A stretch of DNA of 64,000 nt from Obrimoposthia wandeli. Lineage: Eukaryota. The DNA is taken from the NCBI GenBank assembly GCA_977020255.1, contig CDROCS010003157.1, forward strand, positions 1 through 64,000. The letters run 5' to 3'. The notes under the pieces were generated by a model, which was not told where the DNA came from, did no database searches, and saw only the letters and a list, made by a program, of their open reading frames with translations. Shown piece by piece: positions 6,154-29,737 of this stretch. The position numbers and the translations under genes are program-made. Positions within the stretch are counted from its first letter, which is position 1. The number at the start of each line of letters is the position of its first letter.

Positions 6154-6472
6154 AGCTTATAGTCAAAGCCAACAAGGTGGAGAATTACCATATTTTGTTG
6201 GTAAACAATACGGATCTGGCTGGCTTAGAACATTAGGTAGATTTGCCTTTCCTCTTTTAAAGAGACTCGGGCGATTTAGATCAAAATTAGGAAAGGATTA
6301 CCTTTCATCTAATGACAATAAACTAATACCAACTTTTAAGAAGCATGCGCTTGATGAACTTGATAATGTTTTACCTGAAGTTGCTAATTTGATTAGAAAA
6401 CGTAAATCAAATAAAAGCCAAGGAGGTAGTGGATTTAAAAGTAAAAAGAAGCTAAAAATTAATATAAACTAA
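6131..6472 (+). CDS. Maverick core/cement protein with QxGxG motifs
   Basis: QQGG, QYGSGWLRTLGRFAFPLLKRLG and SQGGSGF match the conserved small Polinton protein found upstream of the capsid gene. Confidence 0.7.
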   Translation: MANPAIIEAYSQSQQGGELPYFVGKQYGSGWLRTLGRFAFPLLKRLGRFRSKLGKDYLSSNDNKLIPTFKKHALDELDNVLPEVANLIRKRKSNKSQGGSGFKSKKKLKININ

Positions 6473-6504
6473 CGTAAGAAAGTTGAAGGAACAATATTTG
6501 CAAA

Positions 6505-7734
6505 ATGAGTTGCGCCAAAACTGAATTATGTATTTTTGATAAACCGCTTCCACAAGTAGTTGTAGATAATGCTTCCTTTGAAGAAATATTCCTTGTTAAC
6601 TCAGTTTCAGGAACCACTTTAACCGATTTAGAATTTAATATTAATGGTTCCAATAGCGAGTATTTAGATTTGAATGATACTTTGCTTTATGTTCAAATAA
6701 AAGTATTAAATCGGGATGGTACTAATTTAGATGAAAATGCCGATGTAACACCTGTAAATTATCTATTTAATTTTTTATTTAATGATGCCATTGTTACTCT
6801 TAATAATGTCAAAATTGAAGGTGGAAATTCTTCCTATGCTCATAAAGCTTTGATTGAAAGTCTTTTGAATTATAGTACTGATACTCAAAATACTAATTTG
6901 GCAACTATTGGTTATGATAAAACGGTCGCAACTCGCAAAGAATGGATTGCAGGTTCTAAAGCTTACGAAATGTGTGGGTCTTTGAGATTGAATTTCTTTG
7001 AACAACCGAAATATTTAATTCCCTGTGTTAATGTACATCTTCGTTTGAAACGTAATAAATGGAAATTTTCTTTGATAAGCACGGACATTCTAAAACCTAG
7101 ACTTGATATTTTGGATGCAAAATTGTATGTTCGAAGAGTTAAAACCGAGCAATCAGTTTTAATGGCACATAATATATGAATGGAAAAAAATAATGCTTGT
7201 TATCCTATTAGAGAAACTAAACTTATATCTTATTCTTTAGGTACGGGTACACAAGCTTTTAATAAAGATCAAATTTTTGGTGATGTAAGAATACCGAAAT
7301 TTATTTTAATTTCTTTTCAAAAAACTGCAAAGTTTCTAGGAAATTATACGACAGATGCAACTCAATTTGACAATCTTAATGTTGGTTCAGTGACACTTTC
7401 AAGAAATACTGATTATCGTGAAACATATAAAACAGATTTCGAAGGTAACGCTTATGCTTTGGCTTATACCCAATATATTATTCGAAATTTGGGTCAACTA
7501 GATAAAAATATAAACAATGGTATTTCTTTCACTGACTTTAAAAACAGCTGCCCGTTCTTCACATTTGTTTTGGCACCAGACTTTGATATAAACCAATGCC
7601 AACTACCAAAGGATGGAAATTTACGACTAGAAATTAAGTTCAATGCAGCTTTAACAAATCCTACTACAGTGCTTATTTACGGAGTATTTGATTCGGAAAT
7701 ACAAATCAATAAAAACAGAACTGTCATATTATAG
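6505..7734 (+). pseudogene. Major capsid protein (hexon-like double jelly roll)
   Basis: CAKTELCIF..PQVVV..LEFNI.G..EYLDLNDTLLYV, plus YPIRETK and GNLRLEIKF motifs. Two track ORFs are in one frame, split by TGA at 7177-7179. Confidence 0.9.
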
Positions 7735-7735
7735 A

Positions 7736-8116
7736 ATGGAGTAAGACATATTTTAAATTTATATTTATTAATTTTTATTTAGTTCAAAACAAGTAAAAGA
7801 ATCAGCAGAGAAGGTCCTGGGTGATAAATTCAATGGAGTTTATCCTATTGATATGATTCCATTTTTTCAATCTGGAGGTTACATTATCAATACTCATACT
7901 TCGAATTTACCAGGAGAACATTGGATAGCTATTTATGTTAGAGAGTGGACAATACATGTATTTGATCCACTTGCAATGAATTATCCACACAAACTTGTTT
8001 CAACTATTCAAAAAGGACGAAGAAGAGTATTTTACAACAAGATACAATATCAGGATCGTGAGACGAGAAACTGTGGACATTTATGTATTTTATGGTTATC
8101 GTTGCAAAACGATTAG
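7736..8116 (+). CDS. Adenain-like cysteine protease, spliced: join(7736..7740,7783..8116)
   Basis: Splicing a 42-nt GTAAGA..TTTAG intron gives MDSKQVKESAEKVLGDKFNGVYPIDMIP..GEHW..FDP..Q..CGHLC with catalytic H, D, Q and C. Confidence 0.85.
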
Positions 8117-8391
8117 TTTGTTATAAAAATAAAAATTTTAAATGTTTTATTTTGAATTATTTTTTAAATCTCTAAAAATTTAAGGGTAAAATAATAAAAG
8201 ACATAAGACAATTTTTTTTAATACATTTATTAATCACAACATCACAATGAGATATGTCAGCAAAGATAAGGCATAATAAATAAGGTCCGTCCTAAAAAGG
8301 TATTGAAATAACAAATAAGTTAGAGTCTAGGTGCCATAGGGATCTAAAATTTTAAAAAACTAAACTAAAAAAATCAAAAAATGAAAACCGT

Positions 8392-11300
8392 TTAAATTCT
8401 GAAGTGTCCATAAGCCAGGCTAGCGTTCTTTTCTACCCAAAAGCGCTTGTCGTCATTACTACTCAATGCGATTTCGGTTGATTTATGGGAATACAGTTGA
8501 TGGGCTCTTGAAATAAATCTAGTTTGCTCAACACTTTCAATACACCCAGTATCATAAACTTTCCGGTAGGCCTCATGTGTAAGATTGTTTCTTCCCACAC
8601 CCTTTGCTCTCATTGAACATGTATTATTAGATGCATGTAAACTGTAGCATTTAGGGCGTAGGAAAATACAATCATCATACGAAACCTGTCCCTCGCTTTC
8701 ATCCTTAAATTTCCCGATAATGTCCTTTAAACTCATAGAGTGTAGAGGATGGTTAGTGGGATATTTATGGGTATCTAGTAAGTTGTCCCTAAACATTGCT
8801 GGTAATAATTGATTATTTAAACTAACATTCCTACATTCTAAAAAGAAAGAGTCAGTGTCCCCAGCTGCGATTTTAATCTCACAATTAAATTCTTGTCGGT
8901 ATTTCTCCAATTCTATGTATTGAAGCTCATACATTCTGAGTTTAGAAATGTCTAAAACCGTTTGTCCTATATAACTCGGTCGATCGAGACAAATACTCTG
9001 TTTTCCTAATAACACTGCTACCAAGTCATCTGCAATTGTAAAACTACGCTTGAAGTTGTACTTGCTAGTATATGTTATTAGTTTACGCTCATCATTGCAA
9101 AACCGTAGACAAATACGTTTCCGCAAGTCCTCTACAGTTTTTCCAAAGAGACTATTAATTTTTTAACTTGTAAAAATCTCGATCGAATTTGCTAGTGGCC
9201 AAATTACGTTTTCTTGAATTCTTCTCAATATAGTCTTTAAACACAAAGTTTTGACTGAAGCTTATAGCACGATGAATTCGAGTAACTTTCGCTCCCAACT
9301 TTAAGTAGAATTGAAGAAGCCACCAATGCACAACATAATTCAACTTGTCTTCATGGGTTAACAATAATTTCTTAACCTTTGAATTAGGTGGGCATTGATG
9401 AACAGGCGCTACTGGAAGATCATCTAATTTATCATGTACATTGGGAGGGATTTTTATGTCCACCTCAACCAAATAGCCGATGTCGGATGAAACTGTATCA
9501 ACAGTAGCCAAATCTGTCATCAACTTATTCAACTGATCCACATCATAAACCCACTTAAAGTTGGCATGAGGTAGAGGTTGAGTAAGCGCCCACCCATACA
9601 AATTATTAATATTGATGTACAGAATCTCCGTGGATTGATTTTTGACAACATGATGTTTGTTGACAAAAGTCATTCCACCGCGTATACCATAATCATACAT
9701 TTGATACATCGCGGGATCTTGCAGTAACTCGATATTAATTTTAAGAGTTTTTATTGCTGAAAGACCAGGTAAACTAAAGAAATGCATGGGATCTAGCCCA
9801 TCTTCTGCTGAAGACTTTACACGAAAGGACTCAAAAACATCAGCTAAAAGATAAATGTCTAACTTCATATAATAAAGCATATATTCTAAAAGATTTCGAC
9901 AATTATTCACCCAAAATGTACGGGCCTCATTATAGTCTTGAAGACTTACACCCTCAAATTCAGTTATAGGTGGGATTTCAGTTGTATTTTCTAAATCTGC
10001 GAAAGTTTTCGCAAATTTATACGGAAAAATCCCCTTATCGTTAACCGAAGCTGGGAACACTGACTGTGTAATTGGCCATGCATTTAAAGATGCCGTTAAA
10101 TTTTTTAAAGACCCGCTCAAAAACTGCAGAGAATCTATGAATCTTAAACTGCAGAATTCAGTATATGCAGTTAAAGATAAATATTTCTCTGAAGTTTGAG
10201 GTATACATGAAATTTCCCAAGAGCTTAATGTACCCAACGCGTATTTAAGTATATGATGCAAATCATATCCTTTGAGGTTATGAAACACGATGGGAATGCG
10301 TGGTTTTTTAGGGAGACGACGGCCAAGGTTACAAAGGTTGCACGCCGCTCCCAAGTATCGCCCCGTAACATGATCGTGATCTCTGACTAACTTAGACTGG
10401 GTTCCACACAAATAACATAATCTACAAGAATTAAAATTAACCCAGTCTATGCCTGTCATGATCATTGCTTGATGAGCATTGAGATCATACCACGGTTTGA
10501 CAATTGTTGTTCCTAATTCCTCTAATTTTAACATAAAATCTAAAATACAATTTGGACCGGAAAATTTATGATACTGGATAATATTGGGGCCTAAGAATAG
10601 TAGTCCTGCCGAAGCCGGTAGGTGAATACTCTCATACTGGTCGTGCAATGCTAAAATTGACTCAAAATCTGCATACACCCTGAATTCCACGGGTATGCAT
10701 TTTTCCCAATCCCTGAATTTTAAATCCTTATCCTTAGGCATGCTATATAGCGTATTGTCATCAGGATTCAGTGAACATAATGTCAGATGTTTGCTGTAAG
10801 AGAGCTCGGATCGGAACCCATGCAAACATCTATGACACCACTTACACCTTATCCTAACCGGTAAGGCTCCATTATCTAAATTTAGAAGACGATCTAAACT
10901 GGGAATTGCAGCATAATGGAATTTATTATTATGTTCGAGCAAAATTAAGTTGACCTGAGTCCCCTCATTTTTGCTCCTATAAATTACATCTACAAAAGGA
11001 TTTTTAAAAATTTCTTCATCTGTTACATTAACTGGGATATCAGTATTATATTTGAATACATTAATATTCAAGTTATTAAGATGTTCAAATCTTGATATCG
11101 CAGTTAATTTAACAGGAAAATCTATTCCATGATACTGCAATTCATTTAAAAAAGGGGTATATTTACTGACACGCTCTCTATGCTCAGTAATTACATCCCT
11201 TTTGAGGATGACCAACACGCTATACAGAAAGCAAAGGTTATCACTGTTTTGTACGTTAACAATGGAACGTGAAAGTTGAAGAGATCTAGGTGAAGGAATG

Positions 11301-12034
11301 TATGAACTCCCCGAAAGATATATCATGTCAGTGAACTTTGTTAGAACAAAGCTAACATCGTGAATTCTAACTAGAGTCCATCCACTACTCAACTCGCTAT
11401 AATTAGCAATTTTTTCATCCAGGTTTCTTCCAATTTCAGTTACAAAATTATCATAAAAAACAGTTGCTTTATGTGAAATTACCCAAGTTTTAGTTTCCTC
11501 ATTGACATTTTTAAACTGCACTGTTGCGCAAAATTGAACCTTAGCCTGTCCTAATTTAGTCACTTCTGATTTTAAAATATTTTCAATATTTGAATCTACA
11601 CCTACGTTTAATAAAATTTCATTTCCTAATGGCACCTTAACTATAACATATTTATTATTTAGGTGATACTCTATAGTAGCACCGTTTTCTCTACGTTTTT
11701 TGGGTGGGACCTTATTAAGAAATTGGCCTCGCCTCTTTCTTCCGTTTGTCGCTGACAAACCTCCCCCTAATTGAACAGGAAGAAAACTATTTATATTAAT
11801 AGTTGAGACAATCGCAGCTGAGGTTGAAGGTGCTGCTATTGGACATGCTGCCTATGTTGAGGCAATCGCAGCTGGTGTAGACGATGCTGCTGGAATAGAT
11901 GCTGCCGCAGATGTAGAGGCTGCATTTGAAGCTGACCTTGCCGATGAAGAAGCGGCTGTTGTAGAGGTTAGTGCTGCTGAAATATAATAAAAAATAAATA
12001 TTTTTTAAAAATTACCTCTAAGGCGTGCTAACAT
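8392..12034 (-). pseudogene. polB: Protein-primed DNA polymerase B with endonuclease-VII-like insert; probable 5' exon 12034-12016, intron 12015-11977
   Basis: Exo motifs YADFES, FHNLKGYD and YMKLDIYLL. Pol motifs YININNLYG (catalytic D to N), KLK-NSLFGKT (+1 frameshift near 9158) and GDTDS. CYLC..RDHDH..GAACNLCN endonuclease VII motif. Premature TAG at 11854-11852. Confidence 0.95.
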
Positions 12035-12752
12035 CGATGTAGGCACTCGAGATGGGGAGGCATAGCTGTCCTATCGGATGACGGCTGTATCATGGTACTT
12101 CCTGAATAAAAAACAAAAAATAAAAAATATATAATAAAAATAAAATATATAATTTAAAAATAATAATAAAAAATACCTAATGAATGCAATCCAAGTTGAG
12201 CTGGAATGAAGTCCTCTTCATTGACGAAATCCATCCAGCTGTCGTCCGTTGACTCGACGAAATCGGATTCATCTATGGTCTCCAACCATGAGTTATCGCT
12301 CCACTGCTCTATCTCGAAATCTGACTGGGATATGTCATTCATCCACTCATTGTTAGACATTTGAGTGGATGGGTCAGAATCAGGAGCCGGGAGACTAATC
12401 GCAGGACCGTAAAAGGGTTGATCGACTGCAACTGGAATTGGAGGTGGAGCGACCTGCGAATCGCGCACCAATTGCATGATATCCCTCTTCTTGTTGTTGG
12501 CCGTGAAACACGATAGATGAGCTCGATGTTCACTGAAGAAGTCTCGAAACTCCTTCTCCTCCATTGTTCTACAGAAGGGGCAGACAAAGAAGTGAAGCCC
12601 GCGAGACTTTGTCCGGTAGTATGCAGACATTGTCTCCATGCAGGTCTCTCCTCCATGTGGAGCCGAAGCACCACAATACGCAGGGAATAGGTTACAAGTA
12701 ATCTGAAATAATAAATATTAATAAGGAAATAATAAAAATAAATTCTTACCAT
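12028..12752 (-). CDS. Spliced Maverick accessory gene (about 200 aa): join(12752..12750,12702..12177,12101..12028); Cys-rich N-terminus, acidic-aromatic repeats
   Basis: An ATG-only first exon followed by GTAAG; 47- and 75-nt introns keep the frame. CNLFPAYC..H..C..CPFC, then repeated DxSW(L/M)(D/E)xxxExDF. A homologue is present at 46500-46920. Confidence 0.7.
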
Positions 12753-12957
12753 AGGCATTATTTCAAATTGTCGGGGATTTAAATGAAGAAAGTGTTTGCT
12801 TATATACTAAAATTTATGCACACATGCTCTTTTCCTATTGGATTAAAAAATTGAGAAGGTTTGTTTATCTGTTAAATGGTCAAAAAAATATTTTTTTATT
12901 CCTCCAATCAAAAGATTTAATTGTAATTGAATGAAAATTATGAATTAGAAGAATTGT

Positions 12958-13437
12958 TTATCTACATGTCAAGTAATAATAAGATAGACTTAAACATTTT
13001 TATACGCGCAATGGTCACCATGATTACGATATGGACAGCAAATATTTCGTGGAATTTTTAATATATGAATATATTTAAAGTATTCACCTCAATTTGGGAA
13101 AATATTTTTTTAAAGTCTTATACTTTTTACCATCCATTTCATCTAAAACATAAAAAAATCCATTTTCAATATCAAAATTAGATTTTATTGTATCGAAAAT
13201 ACATATTTCACAAAAAGCCTTATGTCCATCTTTCCATTTTAATAAATGAAAATAATTAGTTAGATATAAATTAGTAAATTTTTTCTTATAATCTAAACTT
13301 TTAAACGGGATATCTTTTTGAAATATGAAATGCAATGGATGAAAAACGTCGCATACCTCCATAATACATAATTCTTTTATAATATAATCCCCATTTTTGT
13401 TAATGAAAGCCTCAAAATCTATGATATATTCCTGCAT
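12958..13437 (-). pseudogene. RNase H/DEDD-like protein with C-terminal Cys/His cluster
   Basis: YIIDFEAF..YIIKELCI resembles an Exo I-type motif. After a frameshift near 13085 it continues KIPRNICCPYRNHGDHCAYKKCL*. Confidence 0.5.
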
Positions 13438-13518
13438 AATTATCTAAATTTGTAGCAAATACCGTTGTTTATAACGAAGTACTTTCATGTTAAGATTGGA
13501 ATATTTTGTCAATTCTCC

Positions 13519-13880
13519 TATGTAACATAATCAATAAAGACAAAATAATAATCAAAAAAAATTTTTTTTGTAGAAGGACTCTCTTCCGGTTTAATCTGGA
13601 GGATTCTCTTTCTTGCTGCTCGCCGAACATCCTCCATCTATTCTCTTCTTTTTTCATCCACCTTCCTTTTTTCAAATTCGATCTTCTTATTCCACTCCAC
13701 GATTCGACGGCGTTCTGCTAGCCTCCTATCCTGTATCTCCACCCGATGATTCCATTCTGTCGCGACAGCAGTATACAAATTCTGGTTGAGGACCCTCTTT
13801 CTTAAGTCCCCTTTCTTCTCATTTATTCTGATGTTTGCTTCAATCTTCGTCACCAGACTCTTCATTTTAATGAATTCCAT
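13519..13880 (-). pseudogene. Charged coiled-coil-like hypothetical protein
   Basis: 80-aa track ORF whose frame continues past the TAG at 13638-13640; TATA-like sequence upstream. No family recognised. Confidence 0.4.
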
Positions 13881-14105
13881 TTTTTTTTAATTATGAAGAG
13901 GTTAATAAATTTGAACCTATATATATAAATTAAAGATATTTTTAATCCAATTAAATGATATATTTTTATTTATCAAATGAGTGTTTAATAAATCTATAAC
14001 TTATCATTGCAAATAAACTTAAAGATAGTATTTCTACATTTAAAAAAATAAATATTAAGAAGAAAACATATGAAACTAAGTTTTATAAATTATATTTTTA
14101 AACAT

Positions 14106-15871
14106 CTATACGAAGTCATCATTGGGATCATTCGGGTCGTAATCCCTCCGACTAAGTATTATAGGAGAAAGCGGTACTGGTTCCTTCTTTTTTGGCCGGC
14201 CCGGTTTCTTTTTCGGCTTCACCGGTTACTTTGTAGCAATTGTCCTTCCCTCAGGTTTTGGCAATAGTTGTTGATGTTAATAATAGCCGATGTTGATGGT
14301 TCCGACGTAGAAGTCCTCTTCCTCTTCTGCGGAGCTTTCTTCTGTTTCTCCTCCTTCTCACGCTGAAGCTGGCGTGAGACGGCATCCTGTTGCCCACGCG
14401 AATCTGGAAGCATTGCCGGTGAATCCAGTTCCGCCAGGAATTCATCCAATCCAGCGTCATCCCTCTTCAAGTTCTGGCTGGTTGTTGGATGAGAAGAAGC
14501 AGTCTCCTGCAGGCGTCGTTGACTTGAGGGCGGACTTATCTCAATCGGCGAGACTGGGATCCTCTCATATAGGATTGGTCCGTCGTCCACTGGAGATTGG
14601 AGAATCTCCTGCTGGCCAATCACCGTCTCAGAATAATGACCAATTGAGGTTTTACATTTTCTCGAGCGCCTCGTCTTCTTCACCTCTGCCCTCTTCGTCC
14701 GTTTCCGCGAGAAAGGAGTAACTTCTCCCCAAGTCTCCTCAAATATCTGGACGGGTTCCTGCAAAATATTAATAAAATTTAAACATATAAATAATTTACC
14801 TCAATGATGGGCAGGTTAGCCTGTTTCACCAACTTGGCCTTCTTCCGAGTGAGGGTTTTGACCCGATGGCGTTGCGGTTTCTTAACTGCCGCTTGCTTCC
14901 TATCCACCGGTTGAATAGACGTCGCCTCTTCGTGAATGTTCTCCATCTATGTGAATTATTAAATTTAATATCTAAATAATTTACCTTAAAATTATCTGGA
15001 GACGCTAGGTATCGGAGCTGACTCCTGGGCAGCTCCTGGCTGCATTGACTCGCCAAGTATTGCGTTTCAATTAGCCTCTCCGTCATGGTCACTGACGGTG
15101 CCAAATCCAGTTGAAGTTTCTGAAAATGAAATTAAAAAACATTTAAAATAAATGATGTCTAACCTCATTCGTTGCTTTTATTCTCCTAACAGGAGATTTC
15201 GGCCTTTTGAATGGTTAAGGCATTGTATTATCTGCTTTCGGAGTAGCAGAGGGAGTGAGACCATCCCAATCGTCGGTGAACAGGTGCCACTCGTCCTCGT
15301 CCAATTCTGCTACCATTGACTCGTTGGCTCCTGGGGCTCCGATACTTGGCTGTATCCATTCGTCGATGAATGGAGTAAAGTCCTCCTCCCAATCCGAAGG
15401 TACATAATCAGTAAACAGCTCCTCGTCTGAGTCTGGTGCGAGGACTTTCTCCGGTTGAGACAGCGGGATCAATTTCCAGGGGTATTTGATTGCCGCCTCA
15501 AAATTGTCGAAGAGATTGGATCTAGCTGCTGCTACTGCTGAAGTTGCCGGACGATTGGGTTTTTTGTTTTGTCTGGGAGTACAGTCTTCCCAATTCTCAA
15601 TCGAATCCTGACTAGTCAGATCGATATATTGAGATCTCTGTACCCCACCTCTCACGTCTATTGGTTCTTCTCTTGGAGTTGAGCTGGCCAATGAGGCTTC
15701 CAACAGGTTCGCTCTTGCTGCTGCTTCTCCTTCGCTCACCACCGATGACTCTTGACTATCTAAGTCAATGTATTGCGACGGTGGTGGCGTTCGCTGCTGC
15801 ACTGGAGAGAGATCCTCATAGAGTTGAACCTCCGTCTCTTCGTCTAGGTCAACGTTGTTGTAGAATGGCAT
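14106..15871 (-). pseudogene. Multi-exon acidic/low-complexity Maverick accessory gene: exons 15871-15164, 15119-14985, 14946-14800, 14758-14106
   Basis: Three phase-0 GT-AG introns (44, 38, 41 nt) join otherwise separate ORFs in frame. One premature TAA (15217-15215) and a frameshift near 14225. C-terminus KPGRPKK..PLSPI..DPNDDFV is conserved at 49240-49320. Confidence 0.6.
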
Positions 15872-16007
15872 TGTTGATTTATGAAAAATAATGAACGGAG
15901 GTGTCTTTATATACACAAACATCTTACTAACCCTCTTTTATTGTCCAATGAGAGCCTCTTATTCAAATAATTTTTGTAATGTTTTTTTGTGCCTGTAGAT
16001 CAAGAAT

Positions 16008-16747
16008 GAAGCCCGCCCCGAAGGGGCGGGTGGTGTATGTTAGGGTATGACACGGGTCGTTTACATTTGTAGTTGTGAGAGGTAAAGTGATACTGTAGCG
16101 CATGTTTTGTAGTTATTTTCGTGAGAATAGAGACCGCCCGAAGGGGCGGGCGGAGNNNNNNNNNNNNNNNNNNNNNNNNNNNNNNNNNNNNNNNNNNNNN
16201 NNNNNNNNNNNNNNNNNNNNNNNNNNNNNNNNNNNNNNNNNNNNNNNNNNNNNNNNNNNNNNNNNNNNNNNNNNNNNNNNNNNNNNNNNNNNNNNNNNNN
16301 NNNNNNNNNNNNNNNNNNNNNNNNNNNNNNNNNNNNNNNNNNNNNNNNNNNNNNNNNNNNNNNNNNNNNNNNNNNNNNNNNNNNNNNNNNNNNNNNGTAC
16401 ATCGCCAAGCTAGTCTGTGACCTATATGAGATCGAGATATCCGTACATTACAGGGCTAGTCTGTGACCTATATGAGAGCGAGATATCCGTACATCGCAGG
16501 GCTAGTCTGTGACCTATATGAGAGCGAGATATCCGTACATCGCAGGACTAGTCTGTGACCAATGTCGGTCCCGAGCCCTTCGCGAAATATTTTTAGCCCC
16601 CCCCCCTTGTCCTTTAAAACCGTGCATGTGTGTGGAGTGAAATTTCACTCCACACACCTACACGAAATTTCACTCCACACACATGCACGGTTTTAAAGGA
16701 CAAGGGGGGAGGGGGTGTGTGGATTAGACCGGACACATCCACCTACT
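16008..16747 (-). repeat. Right terminal inverted repeat of the Maverick (gap 16156-16396)
   Basis: GC hairpins at 16012-16030 and 16134-16149, a 46-bp tandem array at 16397-16560, a perfect 46-bp-stem palindrome at 16601-16709, and terminal CTACT. Confidence 0.8.
16397..16560. repeat. 46-bp tandem repeat (about 3.5 units visible) inside the right TIR
   Basis: ctagtctgtgacc recurs at 16410, 16456, 16502 and 16548; the array runs into the N gap. Confidence 0.95.
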
Positions 16748-17700
16748 GGCGTGCCAGTTGAGTGCAAATATCCGATAGGAAACGAATTAGACGAAAAGAT
16801 TGATGTCATCACTGTAGGACGTCAGGAGTTAGTAGATAATGAAGGATTGGCTGAGATATTGAATTCTGCGTTAGATATGATAACAACGCCTATAGAAATT
16901 CTAGGCAGTTCAAGCGAAAGCAGAAATAATGATGTAGCTGAAACTTGGAACAAGACGTCCACACCTGAACCAAACGTAGCTGAACCACAGGACGTGGAAC
17001 CAACAAATGAGTTGACGAATCTGGTAGTTGAAGTACCACCAGAGCAAGAGATAATTCAAACCGGACAAGATGAAGTCACGGATATAGCTAACCAAGTGAG
17101 AGAAAGCGAAAACGTATCCGAACTAGTTGGAGAAGACGACTTCTCCGAGATTGTAGATTTAGATTCACCAATTTGGCATGCCGCATACAGAGATGGACAA
17201 GCGGAGCAGACGATGCGACAAAACGAGGAGATTGGTCATGTAGCAGGACCAAGCCAAGAGGTACGGTATAATGATGAACCGTATGATCCAGATGAGAATC
17301 AAACTGAGTATCAGTATTTTTGAAGAGGACCTGGAAGACCTAGAAAGGACGGAAGTATATTACGAAATGTTCTAACTGCACTTCAAACTGATGAAGAGAG
17401 ACATCAAAGCATTGGACAGTTAGCAGCGTCATTAGAGCAGTATAGTGCAGAGAGGAATGAAGATATCAGAGGTAATATGAATTCGGAAGCTCTAAGTAGT
17501 AAAGATATACTTACGGGAATTCTCAAGCAAGTAAAGCCGTAGTTGTTCAAAATGTACAAAGATGAAACAACAGATATAACAGACAATTTGACTAGAGCAG
17601 TTAGATCACAAATGTCTGCAGTAAAGAGAATGACTGCGAATCATGGATACCATGTATCAATAGACAGATTTTAGAAAGAGATTAGTTTTAATAAAATAAA
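16748..17700 (+). pseudogene. Acidic low-complexity ORF and continuation (possible gag N-terminal remnant)
   Basis: E/D-rich ORF to 17323, then an AT-hook-like GPGRPRK near 17327-17347. No capsid motif recognised. Confidence 0.35.
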
Positions 17701-17785
17701 AGGGTTCCTGTATAATGAAGGTGGAGAAGGGTTCCTGTATAATAAAAAAGGAGAAGGATTTCATAACAAAACAAGACCAATTCCT

Positions 17786-18880
17786 ATGACGCCGACACCT
17801 ACACTGTTAATGGTGGAATCAGTCGAAGAAGGTCTGATATTTATTAAAAAAGATGATAAGGTGCGATGTGGGATGTCTATTAGTACCACAAACTATCCTG
17901 GAATAGTTATATCGAGAGAATTAATCGCAATGGCGAGAAACAAGATAGAACCGAAAAAAATCCAGCTACACACCTATTTCAACAATAAGATCGATTTCTA
18001 CTATCATAAAGGATTGATACAAACGAAAGAGTTATACCAGATAATGGTTGAGAGAGACTGCCAATTAAATAAAGAGATAATCAGAACCAATTTAGCACTA
18101 GCTGTTACAAATCCAGACATGGTAGCACCACTATTACCCTTAGATGAAGGAGTATTTGCTACAACCATGGGAGAAGTACTGTATACTTACAAGTGTAAAA
18201 TAGTAGTAATACAGTTGAGAAAAACAGATCGATGCACGAGCGAATTGGCAGTAACGTATAATTTAAAAGAGCTCTTTGTAGAACCAATCACGAGAATGAT
18301 ACTTCCAAAAGACACTCCAACTAAAGAAATCAGTTGCTCTAATATAATGGCACCTGAATATAAAATGATGAACGATCTATGGATAACTCTACCTGACCGG
18401 AAGCAGACAACAACTCCAACGATGATAAAAATGACCACTCTTAAAGGAAAAATGAAATTCGAAGCGGTAAAGAATATGGAAAATGCAGGTTTGTACAATG
18501 AGAAAGATTTAAAAGCGGCCTGGAACGAAATAATGTTTCCAGTAAGAAGGGCCAGAGTACTTACGGAGATGGTACATCGTGCATTACCGCCAGGAGCTAT
18601 ATATGCGAATTTTGATATGTTATTGTCGCCAAGTCATTTCAAGGAAGCAGCACATCAGACACTTAGAAAGATGTGGGGGAAATTCCTTGTTTTAGGACAG
18701 TTATTTTCAGGTATCATAGGTATTTATGTTATAATTAAATTTGTGCAGGTAATTATAGCCTAGGTGTTGTCTACGTATAGTTTATACAGGATAACCGGAA
18801 TCATCTGGCAGCTTATAATTGGATGTTTTCCATTTTTAGCGAAATATCTAATGCACCATCATCACGAGAACGAGTTGTGA
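17786..18880 (+). pseudogene. Class III (herpes gB / chuvirus G-like) envelope glycoprotein, C-terminal half with TM region
   Basis: CQL..LAV.NP....GEVLYTYKC..V..R.TDRC..EL.V....LFVEP.TR..C pattern and a WGKFLVLGQLFSGIIGIYVI membrane region, as in chuvirus-type glycoproteins. In-frame TAG at 18761. Confidence 0.8.
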
Positions 18881-19189
18881 GCCCTCAAGAAGGAGCAACA
18901 TCAAACGAGAACCATGATACGAGAACCAATAACTTACCGAGACGACAACGACGACGATAACGATAGTCCAGGAGACTATGCAAAGATACCAAATACAGGA
19001 CAATCAAAGATTCCATTACAAGACAAGGAAGAAGTGGCGCCAAACCTATATCCAATGAAGGAATTAAAAGAAGAGAAGGAAAAGTTCAAGAGAAGCATTT
19101 TAATGATAAGATGGCCTAGAGTGAACTATAGTGAGATTCCACAAGCAGAGGAAAGAGACAAAAAAGATAATTCCAGAAGAATTCTGTAG

Positions 19190-19560
19190 TCTAGGATATC
19201 CAATGAGAATCCGAATGCTCCACCACAAGTAGCAGTAACACTGAACGGAAGAGAATATCTTGTCGAAGTTGATACTGGATCTGCAGTATCAGTGCTGAGT
19301 AAAAAAATCTTGTCATCAAAAGAATTAGGAGAAGTATGTCCTAGAAAACAGACATTTGTTAACGTAAATGGTACAGATGTAGTATCAGAAGGAACACTGA
19401 AATGTAAATAAACTATCGATGGAAGAGCATTGCAGTTAAATGCTAGAATATTAACAGATTGTGGTAGTCCAGTCATGATTGGGATGGACGTAATACGAAT
19501 GTTTAAAGGAATAATAATATTACCAAACAACAAGAGTTCAAATAACAACAGTTCAGTGAG
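19190..19560 (+). pseudogene. Retroviral-type aspartic protease 1
   Basis: YLVEVDTGSAVSVL (DTG at 19271-19279) and IGMDVI; same reading frame as the env fragment. Confidence 0.88.
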
Positions 19561-19759
19561 AGAGATAAAGATGTTGAGAGGACATACAGTTGAAAAGGAA
19601 AAATACACTAGGTTCCGTATGGGAAACCCGTACCGTAACAGGAAACAGGAAGTGTTAGTAAAGTTGATACTTCACTACAAAGGAGTAGACAACGGACCAC
19701 AAGCCATGGGGAGGAGGAAAATAACATATGAGAGTATAGGAGAAACATATCCTTTTAGA

Positions 19760-19935
19760 ATCGAGAGGAATAGACGAAGGTCACTAGAACCGTACTATTC
19801 AAAAGAAATGTCACGCAAAATGGCGAGAATGGGTTTACTAATGTTAAACGGAGATTAAAGTTTAGAAATTGGGAAAACAATGATAACCCAATGAAACGTC
19901 ATAAAAGAGAAGCCCCAACATGTCGATTCCTCCTG
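19760..19935 (+). pseudogene. Degenerate BIR (baculovirus IAP repeat) domain
   Basis: RRRSL..MARMGL..GD followed by FRNWENNDNPMKRHKREAPTCRFL, matching BIR WExxDxPxxEHxxxxPxCxF. The CxxC segment is deleted at a frameshift near 19858. Confidence 0.7.
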
Positions 19936-20474
19936 AAATTCAGAACTGCAAACGAACCAGAAATTCAAACTGGGAAAGCACCCGATTTCGACAACAGTGA
20001 TGAGATTCAGAAGGAGAAACAACTCAAATAATAGGCAGGGTAATAACAAATAGTCGAATTGAAGACATATTCGAAGTAATGCGAGAAGTAAACGAATGTG
20101 ACGAACAATATTGAGAAGTAACTTTTGAAGATCCAAGACTTAAAAAATTGGCAAAAAAGGGACTTTTTGCTATAAAAAAGAATGGTAAAGAAGTGATTAA
20201 ATGCCACAAGTGTAAAAAAGAACGAATTATTGACAGATATACTCTTGAGTTACCTAAGAAAACCTTACATCATGAATTTTGCGAGTTTTGTATTTTTAAA
20301 AACAAAATAAAGCAAAAAGAACAGAAAACTGAATGTATAGTCAATACCAAATCACACGGAAAGAGATTTTCGCTCAACAAGACACACTGGTAGTGTCATT
20401 CGTAAGAAGACTATATCCAAAAGAAGCAGAGAGAATCAGAGATTTGGTGGAATTAAAAATAAAAACTACGCGAA

Positions 20475-21240
20475 ATGGATACGGATCAATTTTTTGAATT
20501 ACTACGAGATAAAGATGACAGTACAATTGAAACAAAAGAGAAAGAGTACATAAATGAACTAGAATACATACTAGAAGATCCGGAATGCGCAGTTTGTATG
20601 GTCAACAAAGTAGAAGTTGCCTTTTTACCATGTGGACATGTGAGAACATGCCGAAGATGTGCAAAGGAAATGGTAACATGTCCGATTTGTAGAAAGATAA
20701 TAGATCGACAAGTGAGAAATATAAGATTTCACTATCCAAACAAAGGAAGTGGACCGACAAAATGTAATAATTCGATAAATACGATATGCCATATGGGAAA
20801 TATAAATGGAGCACAGCGACCAGCAGCTATCATTAGAGTAAATAATTTAAAAGTAAAAGCCTTAATTGATACAGGTGCTGTAGCTTCGATAGTAAGTGAG
20901 AATTGTTTGACAGAGGAACAGAAACAAACAATGGCAGAACCAGATTAATTCTTGGTATCGGTCAATGGAGATCCTGTAAAAGTGACGGGAATATTACCAT
21001 GTACATTTATAATTGGACGTAATACGATCACTATACCAGATCACTATACCAGAATCATGAGAAAATGTCCTGAACCTACAATTTTAGGAATGGATGTACT
21101 ATCACAACTCAAAGGGATAAGTATTGATATACAAGATCCAAGATTGAAAGATAGTACATCAAACAGACAAATAAACCAAATTGATGTAATTATAGAAAAT
21201 CCTATAAAAATCGGTAAAAGATCACAATTTCTTATTTAAG
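20475..21240 (+). pseudogene. IAP-type RING finger fused in frame to aspartic protease 2
   Basis: CAVCM..VAFLPCGHVRTCRRCA..CPICR at 20586-20717, then ALIDTGAVASI (DTG at 20868) and ILGMDVL. Confidence 0.9.
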
Positions 21241-21544
21241 GTCACACATTATCAGAAGATAAAGAACCAGTTGTGTTCGAACCATCACGGGATTTCATAG
21301 AGAAATACGAATTACCAATTGTGAGTACAGTATGTCTGATTGAAAACCACAAAATACCAGTTAGACTGATGAATACAACCAACAATGACATCCTGCTATA
21401 CAGAGGAATGAGGTTGGGAAAGATAGCACAGATGGAGAATTCCACTGTGTGTGCTATGAAACTCGATAAAGATACGAATGATTACGAATAAATAGTAATC
21501 CAATCAGAAAGACTGACAACCAGAGAAAAGAAACAATTACATAG

Positions 21545-22860
21545 GAGAAACACCTGTCATAAAACACACAATACCGCTGACAGAAGACAAAGTAGTCAGA
21601 AGAAGACCATATCGAGTACCTTTACAGTTACAAGATGAAATCAAAAGTCAGATTGAAGATATGTCTAGAACAGGAGTAATTAGACCGAGTTTTTCACCAT
21701 TTCAGCACCTGTAGTGTTAGTAAAAAAGAAGGATGGAAAAATGAGATTCTGTATAGATTTCAGAGAACTGAACAAGATCACAAGAAAATATGTGTATCCA
21801 TTACCTAGAATTGAAGAGATGCTCGATAAATTAGGTAATTAAGATTATTTTACGACATTGAATTTGCAGAGTGGATACTGGCAAATCGAGATAGAGGAAG
21901 AGGATAAACACAAAACAGCCTTTTCCTGCAGAGATGGATTGTACGAATGCGAAAAAATGCCATTCAGACTGACAGGAGCGCCAGCAACATTTCAGCGTTG
22001 CATGAATTTTGTACTCGCATCATGTGCAAATACGATGGTTTATATCGATGACATAATTATATTTTCTAAGACGTTCGAGGAACATCTAAAAAATCTTGAA
22101 GTTGTATTTAAAAGACTGGAAAACGCTAAATTAAAAGTTAAACCTACAAAATGCGAATGAGCTAAAGAGCGAGTAACATTTTTTAGGACATATAGTATTG
22201 AAAGAAGGCATCCGACCTGATCCAGCAAAGATCGAGAAAGTAAAAGCGCATCTAGCGCCAAAGACTGTTAAGGAAATACAGAGTTTTTTAGGTCTTGCGA
22301 ACTATTATAGACGATTTGTTGAACATTTTTCAGATAAAAAAACACCATTGAGAAAGTTGACGAGGAAAGATGAGAAGTTCATATGGAGAAAAGAAGCACA
22401 ACAAGCGTTCGAGCATTTAAAGGGAAGACTGATAAAAGCACCAATATTAGCGTTTCCAGATATAAACCGACAATTCATACTAATGACGGATACAAGTAAC
22501 TATGCTGTATGAGCAGTATTGGGACAAGAGGATGACGAAGGAAGAGAACACGTCATCGCGTATGCGAGTAGAGGGTTAAACAGAGCCTAAAGAGAATACC
22601 CTGTTATTGAAAAGGAATGTCTAGCCATAGTATATTCATGTAGACAGTACAGACACTACTTGCTAGGACAAAATGTATTCCTGTATACAGATCACAAACC
22701 ACTACAGTTCTTGTATAAACATAGAGACGATATGAGTAGATTAAACAGATGGTTTCTGAAATTGGCCGAATTTGATCTAGAAATCCGTTATAGAACCGGA
22801 AAGTCGAATGGCAACACAGATTGTTTGTCGAGATTGATAAATGTAGACGAGAAAGGAAAC
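21545..22860 (+). pseudogene. Reverse transcriptase and RNase H
   Basis: [51 protein letters not shown]. RNase H TDTSNYAV, EKECLA, YTDHKPL and NTDCLSR. Multiple stops and frameshifts. Confidence 0.95.
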
Positions 22861-23099
22861 ATAATTCCAGAAGAAGGTCAAGATGAAGCCAATGACCAAA
22901 AAGGAGAAGCAAATCTACTAACGATTTTGCTGAAGACGGGTAAAATAGACAAAGAGATCATCAAGGAACAAAAAGAAGATGAAGAACTGAGTCTAATCAA
23001 AGAACTGTTAGTGAAAGGAGATCTAAACGATGAAATGACGAAGAAATACTCGATAAAAGAAGGAATGTTGTATATTGTCAACAATGTCGGAAAGATAGT

Positions 23100-24150
23100 A
23101 GTAGTAATTCCGAAGTCATTGAAAACAGTAGTGATGATCCAATACCACGATGGAACACTGGGAGGACATCTGTCAGGACGAAAGACAATAGCCAGAATCA
23201 AAGAGAAGTACCATTGGGATGGTATGGAAGATGACATAAAACAATGGTGTAAACAATATAAAGTATATTTAACCAGAAAAGACACAGGAACTCGTACTAA
23301 AGTTCCTCTGAAACCGATGCCAGTTCCTTTGGCACCAATGGAATTCACAGCGATGGATATATTGGGACCATTGAGAGAATCGAGTAAAGGAAACAAGTAC
23401 GTTATAGTATTTACGGACTACATGACGAGATGGGTAGAAGCATATCCCATGCAAAACCAGAAGGCTGAAACAATAGCGCAGATCTTAGTTGAAGATATAA
23501 TATTTCGATACGGAGTACCTAGAAAGTTATTAACGGATCAAGGCAAGAACTTCACTGGAGAAGTAATAAAAGCAGTATCGAAGATATTCGGAATCATGAA
23601 GTTACAAACTTCACCATATCACCCACAAACCGATGGTCTAGTAGAGAGGTTTAATAAAACTTTATGTATGATAGTACAATCTTATTGCTCCGATAAGCAA
23701 GTGGATTGGGATAAGTATTTACCTTCATGTTTATATGCTTACAGGAATTCAGTTCGAGAGGCGACGGGTCACACACCATTCTATCTGATGTATCTCAGAC
23801 AGAACAATATGCCAATGGATCTGGAGTGGACCGAACCAACATCTCAGTACCTAGAAACTGAACAATACATTGTCGTTATGAAAGAAAGACTACAAGATGC
23901 TTGGACTAAAGCAGGATTGAAGTTGAAATTCAATCAAGAAGGTTACAAGGAACAATATGACAAAAAGGCAAAACCACATTAATTTAGAGTCGGAGATCAA
24001 GTGATGATATTTTACCCAGTCATCGAACCAGGTCTATCGTTTAAACTTCACAGACCATACAAAGGACCATACAAGGTGATACAGACAATCTCAACGAACT
24101 TGATAGTAATCAACGAGGAGAACCGGAACAAGGAACCAATGATTGTACAT
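23100..24150 (+). pseudogene. Gypsy integrase with GPY/F motif
   Basis: HDG..GH zinc motif, AMDILGP, LTDQGKNF, LVERFNKTL and YKGPY. In-frame TAA at 23980. Confidence 0.95.
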
Positions 24151-24299
24151 GCAAATCGATGTAAACTGGTACCGAATAGAGATAATGCGTCACGATATGA
24201 GCTAAGATCACAGAAATTAAAGCTGAATACCAATACCATTAAACTTACACGAATGGTAAATGATCGAAACCACATAAATACGATGACAAGTGGTAACGA

Positions 24300-25340
24300 T
24301 GAAAAACCAGCAAGAATTTGCATGCTCAGAATGAAGCACCAAGAGGAAAAAGAAGTAATCCGACACATCCTACCACAAGAGATATTAGAAGAAGACAAAG
24401 AGATCATAGTCGTTTTCGAAAGAACACAATCAACAGATTTGGCGAAAGAAGTCATTGTGAAAGATGCACTAACAAACGAATTTCTGTGCGAACTTAAATT
24501 TCGATGAAAATACACTAGTCGCAGAACTGCATCAAAAACTCCAATGTGTTTACGACTGAGAAAGTGATAATAGAAATCACATTGATACCAAACATAGTTG
24601 TATGGCAGAACTATGACAGTACCGAAGCAGGACTAGCCAGTCAGGAAGGAAAAGAACCGGCCAGTGGTCATATACTTCATGGCACACCAAAAAGACTCAA
24701 ACAGGAATACCATGATGTAATAATGGTATTACGCAATTCACACGAGAAAAAAGATATATTGAGAGTTCATTTAATCGACGCCGAGACAAAAAAGGTAATA
24801 TATCAGATGGTCACAAAATACTTTGATGGAAAGACCATTGTATGTAATATACCGGTATCTCACCAATTAAAAACAGATCAAACAGAAGTATCTGTAAGAT
24901 TGAGTGTAATAGAAGGATTCCATTCGCCAACCCAACCGGAAGTAACAAACAATAAAATCGTTAAAGCAACGGCAGAGTTACGTATTAACCGATACGTGGA
25001 TACCGAAAGTTGGAAGCTAAAAATAAACCACAAAGAATCAATATGATCAGAGAACAAGCGACAAACTCAATCCAGCCAAAATATCATGCTGAAATAATAT
25101 CATCCGCGCCAAGTGTGATTACATCGATAAACGACGAAATTATAATTTTACTAAAAAATCGATGGCCATCATCAACCGAGATACGAGTAAATTTAGTGAA
25201 TTATGCAAAAACACCGATATCTAAGTTGAATGTCACCTATTTTGATGGATTGTCCATTATGGGTAAATTGGAAACAAGTGTCATGTGCTATGGAGCACAG
25301 TTCCAAGTTGAGATACTTAAGGATAGTGTAATACCGTATC
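24300..25340 (+). pseudogene. Post-integrase extension with three approximately 100-aa beta-rich repeats
   Basis: Repeats PQEILEEDKEIIVVF, PKRLKQEYHDVIMVL..YFDG and PSVITSINDEIIILL..YFDG align with each other. The fold is not established. Confidence 0.45.
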
Positions 25341-25789
25341 CGAATTATAGAGACTCAGGACCAGTCAATCCAATTATTCTAACCCCTTCATTAATTTCAG
25401 TTCAAACTGACATACCAGAACACCCTTCGAGCGAGTCTAGTCAAGACAGTGAACCTGAAAGCAGCAATCCAGAGTCAACAGAATCCGAAGATAACATAAT
25501 AGAGCGATTCGGAAGAACCATGGAAGTTGAATTCGCTAAAGAGAGCAAAAAAAGACGAAACATAGACTTCGTGAAGCAGATTATACAAGAAAGACGAATT
25601 AAATCCGCAGAAGAAACCGAGTCGGAAGAGGAACTAACAAAGGAACAGACTTCAGAGACAAATATGAATATATCTCCAGCGATACGAATGCTGAGAGGAA
25701 AGAAACTGGCGAAATTATCCATCGTCGATGAACAAATAGAGAAGCGATTAGAAAGACTAAAACTTGAGGAGTCAGAATTGATGCCACCA

Positions 25790-26210
25790 ATGAGTGAGAT
25801 AATTCCAGATATGTTATACCTCGGAAATGTGGAAGACGCTACAGACGAAAATAAACTGTTGGAAAAAGGGATAACATATGTGATCAATGTTACAATGAAT
25901 CACGAATAGCAATACCAGACAATCAGAGCTATGACATTAAGAGTGAAAGACTCAATGGAGTCTAATCTTCTCGAATAATTCGGAGAAACAAACGAGATAA
26001 TTTACAAAGAACTCCAAAACCAAGGAAAAGTGTTGGTACATTGTCAGAAAGAAATCTCTAGATCAGCAACCTTGGTATTAGCATATCTAATAAAGAGTAA
26101 ACGAATGCAGGTACTAGAAGCACTGAATTATCTACAAGAAAGACGAAGTATTGCGAACCCAAATCTTAATTTTTTGGGACAATTGTCAAATTACCAACTC
26201 ATGTTACAAG
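25790..26210 (+). pseudogene. Dual-specificity protein phosphatase domain
   Basis: MSEIIPDMLYLGN..GITYVINVT..D..VLVHCQKEISRSATLVLAYL..AL.Y...RR.IANPNLNFLGQL. The P-loop HCxxGxSRS has G to E; two in-frame stops. Confidence 0.92.
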
Positions 26211-26299
26211 AACGGAGACGGATGAATGACATTCCCGAAGATCCAAAGGAAAAGAATTTCCTCCAATCACTATCGTTGACCGGATTATTCTTAGCAAGA

Positions 26300-26740
26300 G
26301 TCGACAAAATCACCCAGATAATGCCGAAAGTATTTTTATGTCACCCAGGAGATATAGATACTGCTGGATTAAAGTTCCACACTATCAACCGAGTAATTAA
26401 CATTGTTGAAGTCGAAAACGAGATAATCAGTATATGTCAAAATACTGAAGATGATACTACACGATATATACATGCTTCAAATAGGGAGGTAAACGACGCA
26501 CAACAACACCTGAGGAAGTTGACTCAAACAATCCAAGTCGAAGTCACAGAAGGAAGCAGCGTTCTGATATATCAGAAAAAAGGTACAATGTTAGCACCTA
26601 CCATAGGTGTATCCTTGTTGGTAGAGTACCATTGTCATACACCAGAGGAAGCGATGGTCTACATCAAACAGAATAGACCAGATACGGAATTCAAACCGTT
26701 ACTCGTTCGAGAAATAGAGAAATACTTTGAAAGAAGGAAG
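26300..26740 (+). pseudogene. Second, catalytically dead DSP-like domain, followed by hydrophobic/TM segments to about 26990
   Basis: ITQIMPKVFL..INRVINI..VLIYQKKGTMLAPTIGVSLL..EEAM.YIKQNRP keeps the DSP scaffold but lacks the catalytic Cys and Arg. Downstream LLALGLLSCLM and ALMMLLVLIGLIDVWLI are hydrophobic. Confidence 0.65.
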
Positions 26741-29737
26741 CAACAACGAGAAATGAATGAGGTTACAACAACAGTGCCCAGCTATCAGTACCGAAGATTG
26801 CTAGCACTAGGTTTGTTAAGTTGTCTAATGCCAACAACGGGAGCACAAGAGATAGGCTCCAACCACGGAAATAGTTCCTGGTTCAAAGAAATCAACAGAT
26901 ACATCATGCAGTACCATACGCCGGCACTGATGATGCTATTAGTGTTGATAGGACTGATCGATGTTTGGCTAATCAGAAAATTTTTTCGATCCATAAGAAC
27001 CGACAGAGAAAGATTCCAGTTTGTAAAAATGAAGAGACCAAATGGACCAACAAACCAGGTACTTGTTTATCTAGACGAAAGGATCGAGGAGAACATAGTG
27101 AATGAAGCGATATATTATCCACAAAACAGAATACTGAATCAATTCCGAATGGACTACGAAGCTGGCCGACAGCGCACACTTGACCGAATATCAGCAACAT
27201 TCGCTGGATGCGGGCGAAGAAAGCGAATTGTAAAGGAAATACAAAAAGAGGCGGATACAAAAGGCACGACGTATACGATACAGCAATACTAATACAAAAA
27301 TATTTTCCCGAAAACAATATATTTAAATTCGAAATTCGGAATTTTATTATATTCAATATTATGGGACTTAGTAAGAAAAAATTATCGTGCATTCTTTTTT
27401 ACAGTGATACGGTACAATACATTTTTATTAAGCTATAATAAAGTTTAAATAATATACACATTAATTTTTTAGATATTGTAACTATGCCTAGAGTCTTAGT
27501 TGTGTAAAAACTGACTTGGCAGCCAATGATTTTTTTGAAAAAAACATTTCTATGATAAATACTTTAAAATTTTTAAATTCTCGGTTTTTTAAAAGGTTTT
27601 TGCACAGAGACCCCCTCTTGTTAGTTACGATCTGATTGGAAGAACCAAATGACAGTCAATTGGATATTTTTATGATATTGCATTTGTAATTTCTGCTGAT
27701 TCTCAAAATCTCGACAGAGATAACCTGTACTCGAAAATAAGTAAATATAATTCTGAGAATTATTAGTTCATTTGACGATTTTCTGCGTTATTCATTAACG
27801 CATTGGCCCAATTTGTCTTTCTTAAGGGCATTACTTTATCGCATGAAAAAAATGGTAAATATGTTTATAAAAGGGTACACTCATTTTTATTGTAATTTAA
27901 TAAGTATTCGAACTCTGTTGCTAAGAAGGTTTCATTGGAAATTATCAATGGTGTATATTAGAAATATATGATGTCCATGCACCAATGAGTTGAAGATGGG
28001 GTTACGTTAAGCCCATCTAGAGCTGATAACATCATAATTTAGTTCACTTACATTATCTTTAAATACAGTAATTCGGAAGTTTGTATGGCGATTTATTATT
28101 TATTATGATTTTGATAGCATAATGTTATATTTTTAAGAGATTTTGACAACTCTCCACTAAAATTCCTGGACAAATCGGTCAATCCATACAAAAAATGGGG
28201 TCAAGTGCTCGTTTTTTAAAATAACTTGTAGTTTATAGAATGAATGAGAGAGAAAAATTTATTAAAACCCTTAATTTTTTGATTTAAAGATATTTAATAT
28301 TGACAAAATAAATTTTAAAAATAATTCGTTTGAGGAATAGGCAAAAAATTTAAGCAATTTACAATGTTCCACTGATTCGATGTTACAAAAATTGTAAAAG
28401 GAAAATTAACCGAAAAAGATGCTACCGAATTTTGTATACTACATAATTAATTCTTCTATTACTTGAAATTAAATGAAAATAAAATGTTTGAAAACTGAGT
28501 ATATTTCATATTTTATTTATACTATACGGAACCTCCACTTAATTAATTTAAGACAAAATTAATACGGATACATTCAAAAATATTCCTTAGCGATTAATTT
28601 ATCGGTATATGTAAAATTATGCAATAGAAATTTCATGGCAATTAATTTGTGAAAAATACGCCCAAAAAAAAAAATTCTTAAGCCATTTCAATTTTATAGT
28701 TTAATGTTATAAAAATAAGAACTAATAAACAAAATCTCTTTTAATTATCGAATATAGATTACTCCAACAAAAAACGCAACATCTTTCGATTTGAATCCAT
28801 TTTGAAATTATGGTAAAAATAAGATTGGAAATTAACTCGTTTGAATTTTAATTTTAAAAATAAATTTTACATTACAAATTATTGATTGAAAATATCGTTA
28901 ATGAATATACCTAATAATACCTAACTATTAATCAAGTACCATTATGAAGTGATATTTTGGATTTTTATATGGACAAGATTGTAGTAATCTGATTTTTGGC
29001 CTGTATGTTACATGCCGCACGAACGATGTGGAGGTAACTTTCATAACGTTTTGCATATTGAAGTGAAGTTGCTATCGGACAGTGTAGTGACATGCCAATT
29101 TTGATATCGGCCCTGGTGACTGCGCCCAGTCGGTTTATGCATATCTATCATATACATATATAGCACACATACTCAGACACACAAGTCGGAAGTGATGACC
29201 GTCTATCGGCATTTTACTGATAATTGCATCACACTGCGTCTTACGTCACTGGGTAATAAAATTAATTTAAACTCCAATAAATTAAACTGTATACAGCAAT
29301 CATGTAATTGAAATCAATAAAAGTCCAGTAAAATTTTCATCAGACACTAGAAATGCCGTCCAATGAGAAACTGAGTCAGTCTGGTAACTAATGACTGATT
29401 TTATTGATTGGCTCTAACGCGAACAGTAAAGTAATTTTATTGGTTCCGTCATTGCATAATAATTGAAATATTTCATATTTAGGTCTTTACAATCGGGACG
29501 AGTAGCATTTTGAACCAGTCCAGAAGTGGAAGATAAACACGATTAGATTGTCAAGAAACGAGAAGCATTGTCAAACGAAACTAAATTTATTGAATTGCCA
29601 ATTCCCAGAGGTGAGATAAGTTGATGTTGCTTGATGGACTGAGATTGTTTATGATGCTGCGTAAATTTTGACAGTTAGATCATAATAAAAATAGTTGTGC
29701 GCAGAGTGTTCATTTTGGTTTATTGCAGACTATAAAC

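Follow-up and report, generated by a model that had tools for sequence, protein, structure and literature searches.

The window, meaning the whole stretch of 64,000 nucleotides analysed here, raises the question of whether a retroelement polyprotein has taken in an IAP and, if so, what the captured protein would do for its carrier and where it came from. To our knowledge, LTR retrotransposons seldom fix whole host-manipulation genes. A sequence-only reading of the window had proposed an embedded IAP with a BIR and a RING, which upon proteolytic release could keep host cells alive, IAPs being known for caspase inhibition and E3 ligase activity.

An IAP module in a giant Ty3/Gypsy polyprotein

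Both motifs were confirmed. The BIR signature WENNDNPMKRHKREAPTCRFL lies at window 19774-20028 (+) and matches Pfam BIR (PF00653) with E 9.3e-6 and 26.5 bits (cut-off 22.9 bits) over profile positions 44-69, and the RING matches zf-C3HC4_3 with E 3.6e-13 within window 20463-20948. The spacing of about 650 nt between them also holds, with the BIR ending at 19932 and the RING starting at 20580. One continuous frame is not found in the window copy, where the two motifs are in different frames. The extent proposed was right for BIR and RING, but the module is larger and comprises an N-terminal extension, an atypical second BIR, a UBA-like domain and two flanking aspartyl proteases (Table 1). Set against a sister copy, the window copy has a 52-nt deletion at about 19856, which removes the CxxC of BIR1 and with it the canonical C-x2-C-x16-H-x6-C pattern; it also has 1-nt indels near 20009, 20343 and 20495, and stop codons at 20112 (the start of BIR2) and in each protease. 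Judged by these lesions, the window copy of the IAP-bearing element is dead and decayed. In sister copies the BIR zinc ligands are present and the RING is of the IAP family.

Table 1. Features of the IAP module and its neighbours, in window coordinates.
Feature	Position	Strand	Remark
Polinton (ATPase, integrase, capsid, pPolB) inside the element's ORF	73..16748	.	copy without an IAP gene
Giant LTR element remnant, both LTRs absent	16750..27275	+	upstream continuation at window 1 to ~70
Env-like fusion glycoprotein, C-terminal part	17786..18757	+	PF24664, E 9.7e-61
Aspartyl protease 1 (DTGS)	19229..19492	+	stop at 19409
N-terminal extension of IAP module (HY...R-K-x-x-Y)	19655..19759	+	aligns with start of standalone Polinton IAP genes
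BIR1, type-I-like	19760..19932	+	CxxC knuckle deleted, frameshift in window copy
BIR2, atypical spacing C-x2-C-x18-H-x3-C	20112..20285	+	Pfam E 0.005 alone, below cut-off
UBA-like three-helix domain	20375..20513	+	frameshifted in window copy; XIAP UBA 2kna structural match
IAP-class RING ending VRNIRFHY, then Pro (candidate protease site)	20580..20735	+	
Aspartyl protease 2 (DTGA)	20823..21116	+	stop at 20946
RT, RNase H, integrase; Ty3/Gypsy order, broken	21720..23625	+	
Two dual-specificity-phosphatase (DSP) domains, further polyprotein cargo	25793..26720 (limits approximate)	+	

The proposal that an IAP was captured into a polyprotein stands on its colinearity with fish cIAP1, its matches to IAP structures and a frame shared with env, RT, IN and DSP domains. 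The profile of the module is colinear with BIR2-BIR3-UBA-RING of fish cIAP1 (BIRC2), the CARD lacking, with an hhalign probability of 99.7%, and its best PDB matches are cIAP1, cIAP2, NAIP and XIAP, headed by cIAP1 3t6p. For the RING, cIAP1, cIAP2 and XIAP rank above MIB1 and MYLIP. PF00653 scores 46-59 bits in all five long sister-copy frames scanned. BIR1 has canonical spacing. An AF2 model of the module, built on an alignment of ten rows, is weak overall (pLDDT 56.6, pTM 0.34, the RING below 50 pLDDT), with both BIRs at a pLDDT of about 63-87 per block of ten. As modelled, the module appears to match solved BIR folds (Z up to 9.0); residues 163-306 match cIAP1 BIR3-UBA, and the top match of residues 257-310 is XIAP UBA 2kna, with a middling Z of 5.7 and an rmsd of 1.7 A over 53 residues. 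The UBA profile PF21290 had no match in the genome search. Compared with the XIAP/cIAP-type RING IAPs (BIRC2/3/4), the module thus differs in the missing CARD, the type-I-like first BIR, the x18-H-x3-C spacing of the second, and a longer RING tail with Ile at the F616 position. Two word-based searches for homologues of the module came back without a scored match, in contrast to a HMMER library search that matched 5,141 proteins; a search in phages found nothing, and an Atlas search gave general animal IAP clusters only.

As far as its sequence tells, the carrier is an env-bearing Ty3/Gypsy element of about 22 kb, a length taken from one measured copy, and is Burro-like. The PR-RT-RH-IN order of Ty3/Gypsy is found in the element, and sister copies hold the complete N-extension-BIR1-BIR2-UBA-RING module in frame between the two proteases. 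A single natural frame of 2,945 aa covers the env C-terminus, protease, BIR, RING, protease, RT, RH, IN and two DSP domains; frames running through the IAP module reach 4,985 codons, and the CCHC knuckle is joined to env in one frame of 1,631 aa. In one sister copy, direct repeats some 1.4 kb long (in pieces 95.6% and 86.5% identical) lie about 21.8 kb apart, with Gag, the CCHC knuckle and env upstream; the 3' repeat starts with TG, and neither a CA end nor an exact TSD came to light in that copy. A weak ubiquitin-like match (E 0.0085) came from two other copies. The genome search with the element returned 4,470 first-look candidates, a figure not equal to copy number, and the 40 scored show 85-96% identity, the window itself aside. 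The nearest RH/IN relatives stand at 50-52%, and those named Gypsy Pol proteins that align over most of the query at about 33-39%. BCL2, MATH, ankyrin and dUTPase-like domains have no Pfam or PDB match in the element, and the idea of a dUTPase-like domain in the stretch from protease 2 to RT was set aside accordingly.

In the window, the element's ORF is split by the Polinton listed in Table 1, and window 26-68 matches the upstream continuation in six of six sister loci; about 1.4 kb upstream of the env part is missing relative to sister copies. The two proteases that bracket the module are 29% identical to each other and both have catalytic motifs. Such unlike proteases could pair within one chain or mark recombination between two elements. 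Behind the DSP domains the polyprotein continues for more than 800 aa, with hydrophobic stretches and no Pfam match (L081:7580-10000; window 24500-27275).

The likeness to Burro/GYPSM1, the giant Gypsy-like LTR elements of planarians, is drawn from their published description. According to the available text of PMC6431247, Burro likewise has one ORF of about 5,000 codons, a Gag with a CCHC knuckle, a ubiquitin-like domain, a mononegavirus-type env lying in frame after gag and ahead of the protease, and BIR cargo. Both are abundant, with thousands of search candidates here. In contrast to the present element (about 22 kb in the one copy measured), Burro is described in the same text as longer than 30 kb and as carrying MATH, BCL2, ankyrin and dUTPase-like domains, some of them recognised by HHpred only, for which there is no Pfam match here, whereas two DSP domains are present here.

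Conservation and selection across copies

DNA similarity yielded 11 sister loci, every one of which keeps the C-C-H-C ligands of BIR1. An unbiased set of 20 copies was picked by RH/IN similarity; part of the module is found in 19 of them and its full span in 17, and in this set all zinc ligands are intact in BIR1 of 14/17 copies, BIR2 of 15/17 and the RING of 15/18. The modules of different subfamilies are about 80-87% identical, with frame and ligands kept across them.

Net dN/dS was calculated between two subfamilies (19 versus 13 loci, 95% codon bootstrap), leaving out 18 of 50 loci as intermediate (10) or unassigned (8); eight of the 13 subfamily-B loci had been chosen by protein similarity. 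The values are 0.06 [0-0.48] for BIR2, 0.17 [0-0.72] for UBA, 0.16 [0.03-0.57] for RING and 0.14 for the linker, its interval also below 1. For comparison, RT and RH gave 0.02 and 0.01, and protease 2 gave 0.42 with a wide interval. From these ratios, BIR2, UBA and RING are under purifying selection. BIR1 (0.66 [0.27-2.12]) and the N-extension (1.08 [0.35-5.35]) are not different from neutrality; BIR1 is fast-evolving, yet its zinc ligands are kept. Around BIR1, synonymous divergence is raised as well (0.19-0.39, against 0.02-0.16 in other parts), suggesting that this stretch has recombined or holds older alleles, so positive selection cannot be claimed.

Predicted function and release of the module

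Caspase inhibition, one of the IAP activities named at the outset, is not borne out by the groove residues of BIR1. The E/Q319 position holds Arg in 41 of 49 loci and Glu or Gln in none, the W323 position holds Glu or Asp in 44/49 and an aromatic residue in none, and Lys occupies the G306 position in 47/49; the acid at D/E314 is kept in 45 loci and W310 in 42. Lys or Arg at E/Q319 together with the loss of the aromatic at W323 marks a type I BIR, which does not bind IBMs (available part of PMC6360406). BIR1 therefore looks type I, and direct caspase binding or inhibition is unlikely, which makes a released E3 ligase or adaptor the better guess. BIR2 departs from the canonical zinc spacing, and no groove motif can be made out in it.

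The RING tail bears on both activity and release. IAP RINGs need their C-terminal tail, and F616 of cIAP1 is required for ubiquitin transfer, according to the accessible sections of PMC6349121. In the module the equivalent of R614 is kept, Ile aligns with F616 and a Phe follows two residues further on, a pattern common to the LTR module and the Polinton genes described below; given the Ile, E3 activity of the module is not assured. For the tail to form a free C-terminus, the polyprotein would have to be cut. Position by position, the tail reads NIRFHY-P in 46-47 of 49 loci (two without data), and the HY-P end is kept in 46/49. Retroviral proteases prefer to cleave between an aromatic residue and Pro. 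The flanking proteases could thus cut at a candidate Tyr-Pro site directly after the RING tail and free the IAP as a separate protein, with a tail of about the same length as in the free Polinton proteins. The kept tail, the candidate HY-P site and this match in length suggest release as an E3 ligase or adaptor. We lean towards the reading that the element carries a whole IAP gene, the product of which, freed by the proteases, would act as a predicted ubiquitin ligase and signalling adaptor and keep the host cell alive or permissive by means other than blocking caspases directly. Expression, cleavage, E3 activity, targets and a benefit to the element are inferences.

Other roles are less probable. 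A classical anti-apoptotic IAP, binding caspases or IBM antagonists through its BIRs after release as baculovirus IAP3 or XIAP do, would agree with the kept D/E314 acid and W310, with XIAP-BIR2 at the head of the Foldseek PDB list for the model, and with the best BFVD matches, which are viral IAPs combining two BIRs with a RING; the Arg, Glu/Asp and Lys at the three other groove positions, and the zinc spacing and unrecognisable groove of BIR2, speak against it, and we consider it improbable. It is also unlikely that the module acts in cis, attached to or packaged with Gag, Env or Pol and ubiquitinating proteins of the element itself or restriction factors close by, in the service of assembly, budding or polyprotein turnover, with cell survival beside the point. 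The strongest selection does fall on BIR2, UBA and RING, and the polyprotein into which the module is fused also has the weak ubiquitin-like match, but the same type of protein stands alone in Polintons, which have no structural proteins in common with the LTR element, and this suggests a host-directed role. That the module is a neutral passenger without function for the element would explain the near-neutral BIR1 and N-extension and the many broken copies. Such a passenger is very improbable, and is already largely refuted by the dN/dS intervals below 1 for BIR2, UBA, RING and linker; the maintenance of frame and ligands across subfamilies argues against it as well.

Standalone Polinton genes and the ancestry of the module

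Relatives of the module were found in a genome search with PF00653, in which 150 of 12,110 candidates were scored and 30 loci fetched. The two top-ranked loci fall outside the standalone IAP families and, by their motifs, are labelled a survivin-like and a Bruce-like BIR. The other 28 form two families of high-copy standalone IAP ORFs, of 300-341 aa where unbroken. In all three loci that were extended (L083-84, L085-86 and L087-88), Polinton genes for an A32-like ATPase, rve integrase, DJR capsid or pPolB adjoin the IAP. The Polinton IAPs align end to end with the LTR module (31% over 345 columns, E 4e-47), the ends of the module coincide with those of the standalone ORFs, and N-extension, CI(V/I)EY motif and tail are common to both; the atypical BIR2 also occurs in the 341-aa family. 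The best 150 of the 5,141 proteins matched in the library search were examined and include five further proteins of this IAP type (P0002, P0003, P0009, P0037 and P0100). A search for the genomic context of P0003 in viral and metagenome contigs gave nothing.

In a whole-module tree, the 12 rows of LTR module, Polinton IAPs and five library proteins form a clade (100/100) against eight cellular IAPs, and the same grouping appears in a quick tree of BIR+RING that includes 55 cellular IAPs (SH-aLRT 99). Because of the shared derived motifs, the grouping is supported, long branches notwithstanding. On the strength of these alignments and trees, the LTR module and the Polinton IAP genes are of shared ancestry and the link is old. 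A recent capture from today's Polintons was rejected, there being no DNA-level match, a protein identity of 31-46% and no nesting of the LTR module in the tree. Physical clustering of the element with Polintons was likewise rejected: Polinton genes occur in 5/18 flanks and in 8/18 arbitrary 10-kb control stretches (L133-L150; Fisher p 0.49), and since the controls hold them as well, Polintons are simply abundant and make up an unusually large share of the genome.

Shared ancestry would mean that a gene moved between virus-like elements of class I and class II, or that both took up one and the same gene in parallel. In the latter case, the LTR element and the Polintons would each have taken the gene from a divergent host IAP, with no exchange; this is a serious possibility, which we hold to be somewhat less probable than its opposite. 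It agrees with a tree whose inner branches are poorly separated and in which the Polinton IAPs are a clade by themselves (99/98), without the LTR module being nested in it. A clade of LTR module plus Polinton IAPs is absent from the best tree and not rejected (AU p 0.085); a grouping of the LTR module with P0003/P0009 is not rejected either (AU p 0.28). The five library proteins of the clade could, moreover, be host genes. Against independent capture, genome searches with P0002, P0100, the canonical IAP P0069 and PF00653, each scoring 88-150 of 12,000-20,000 candidates (<2%) matched exon by exon, turned up neither a clade member nor a canonical RING-IAP among host genes; their best rows reached only 30-43%, and the loci read were mobile copies. 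A more far-reaching scenario, which we regard as doubtful, is that the IAP clade exists only in mobile DNA, was passed between Polintons and the LTR element, in which the whole gene became a polyprotein domain released by protease, and supplies the host's only RING-IAPs, with the fast-evolving BIR1 as an arms-race surface. If true, the host lineage would have lost its own RING-IAPs and be left with the many mobile copies alone. RING-IAPs are near-completely lost in sampled platyhelminths, which would fit if the host is a flatworm; the available text of that report contains no mention of Polintons and no planarian name (PMC13159474).

The core observation is already known, as BIR cargo in Burro is published in the text available of PMC6431247, the only paper found that combines Burro, BIR and retrotransposon. 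There the cargo is proposed to meddle with apoptosis, and a role in apoptosis or ubiquitin is called an untested possibility. The same text describes a BIR and a separate AIR1 RING zinc-finger motif, and in the parts available no BIR-BIR-UBA-RING between proteases, no selection on the BIR cargo and no Polinton link. A paper on env-bearing Gypsy elements (PMC13524379) leaves Burro, BIR and planarians unmentioned. IAP homologues occur as accessory genes in Polintons/adintoviruses (PMC8502044, in excerpt), and baculoviruses, nudiviruses and other large DNA viruses have captured an IAP as well; all of these resemble the present case as captures into a mobile or viral genome, but here the IAP is a polyprotein domain of a retroelement. 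Available sections of two further papers report retroelement domains in some bivalve IAP gene models (PMC8917759) and, in a planarian, expression of Burro1 and control of LTR elements and Polintons by PIWI (PMC8532177). The literature search found no paper on an IAP clade common to Polintons and LTR elements, and the protease-IAP-protease layout is not in the literature found, although Jurka 2007, Grohme 2018, a figure of the review or adintovirus supplements may show it. Relative to the literature found, the full architecture, the type-I BIR1 and the Polinton connection are new. To the published account of Burro the analysis adds evidence that the module is under selection, an exact architecture bounded by natural ends, the expectation that caspases are not bound directly, and an ancestry shared with Polinton genes.

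Several minor observations concern the Polintons. An ORF with a DSP fold and without the HCx5R motif adjoins a Polinton-type IAP at L084:1542-2102 (G000:C5717); it is 31% identical to the first DSP of the LTR element and has at least 150 copies at 81-100% identity. It may be a second cargo common to LTR element and Polintons. The 341-aa IAP is often found in inward-facing pairs about 10.4 kb apart (L157/L158 in G000:C6785, also C4062, C609, C777 and C873), and in the one pair compared the two members share 99.8% identity across 3.3 kb, which suggests that long terminal inverted repeats contain the gene. At L021:191-595, next to a Polinton IAP, there is a TBP-fold ORF (PF00352, E 6.6e-7). Elsewhere in the window, part of a second Polinton, oppositely oriented, lies at 46500-48900 and resembles window 10768-12306 at 70-92%. 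Ordinary DNA transposons are represented by a 444-nt inverted repeat pair (98%) at 37039-41295 and a DDE_3 transposase fragment at 43216-43530. Tandem repeats of 196 nt with an inverted copy lie at 60394-63721, and a short CA-rich repeat array at 56024-56499.
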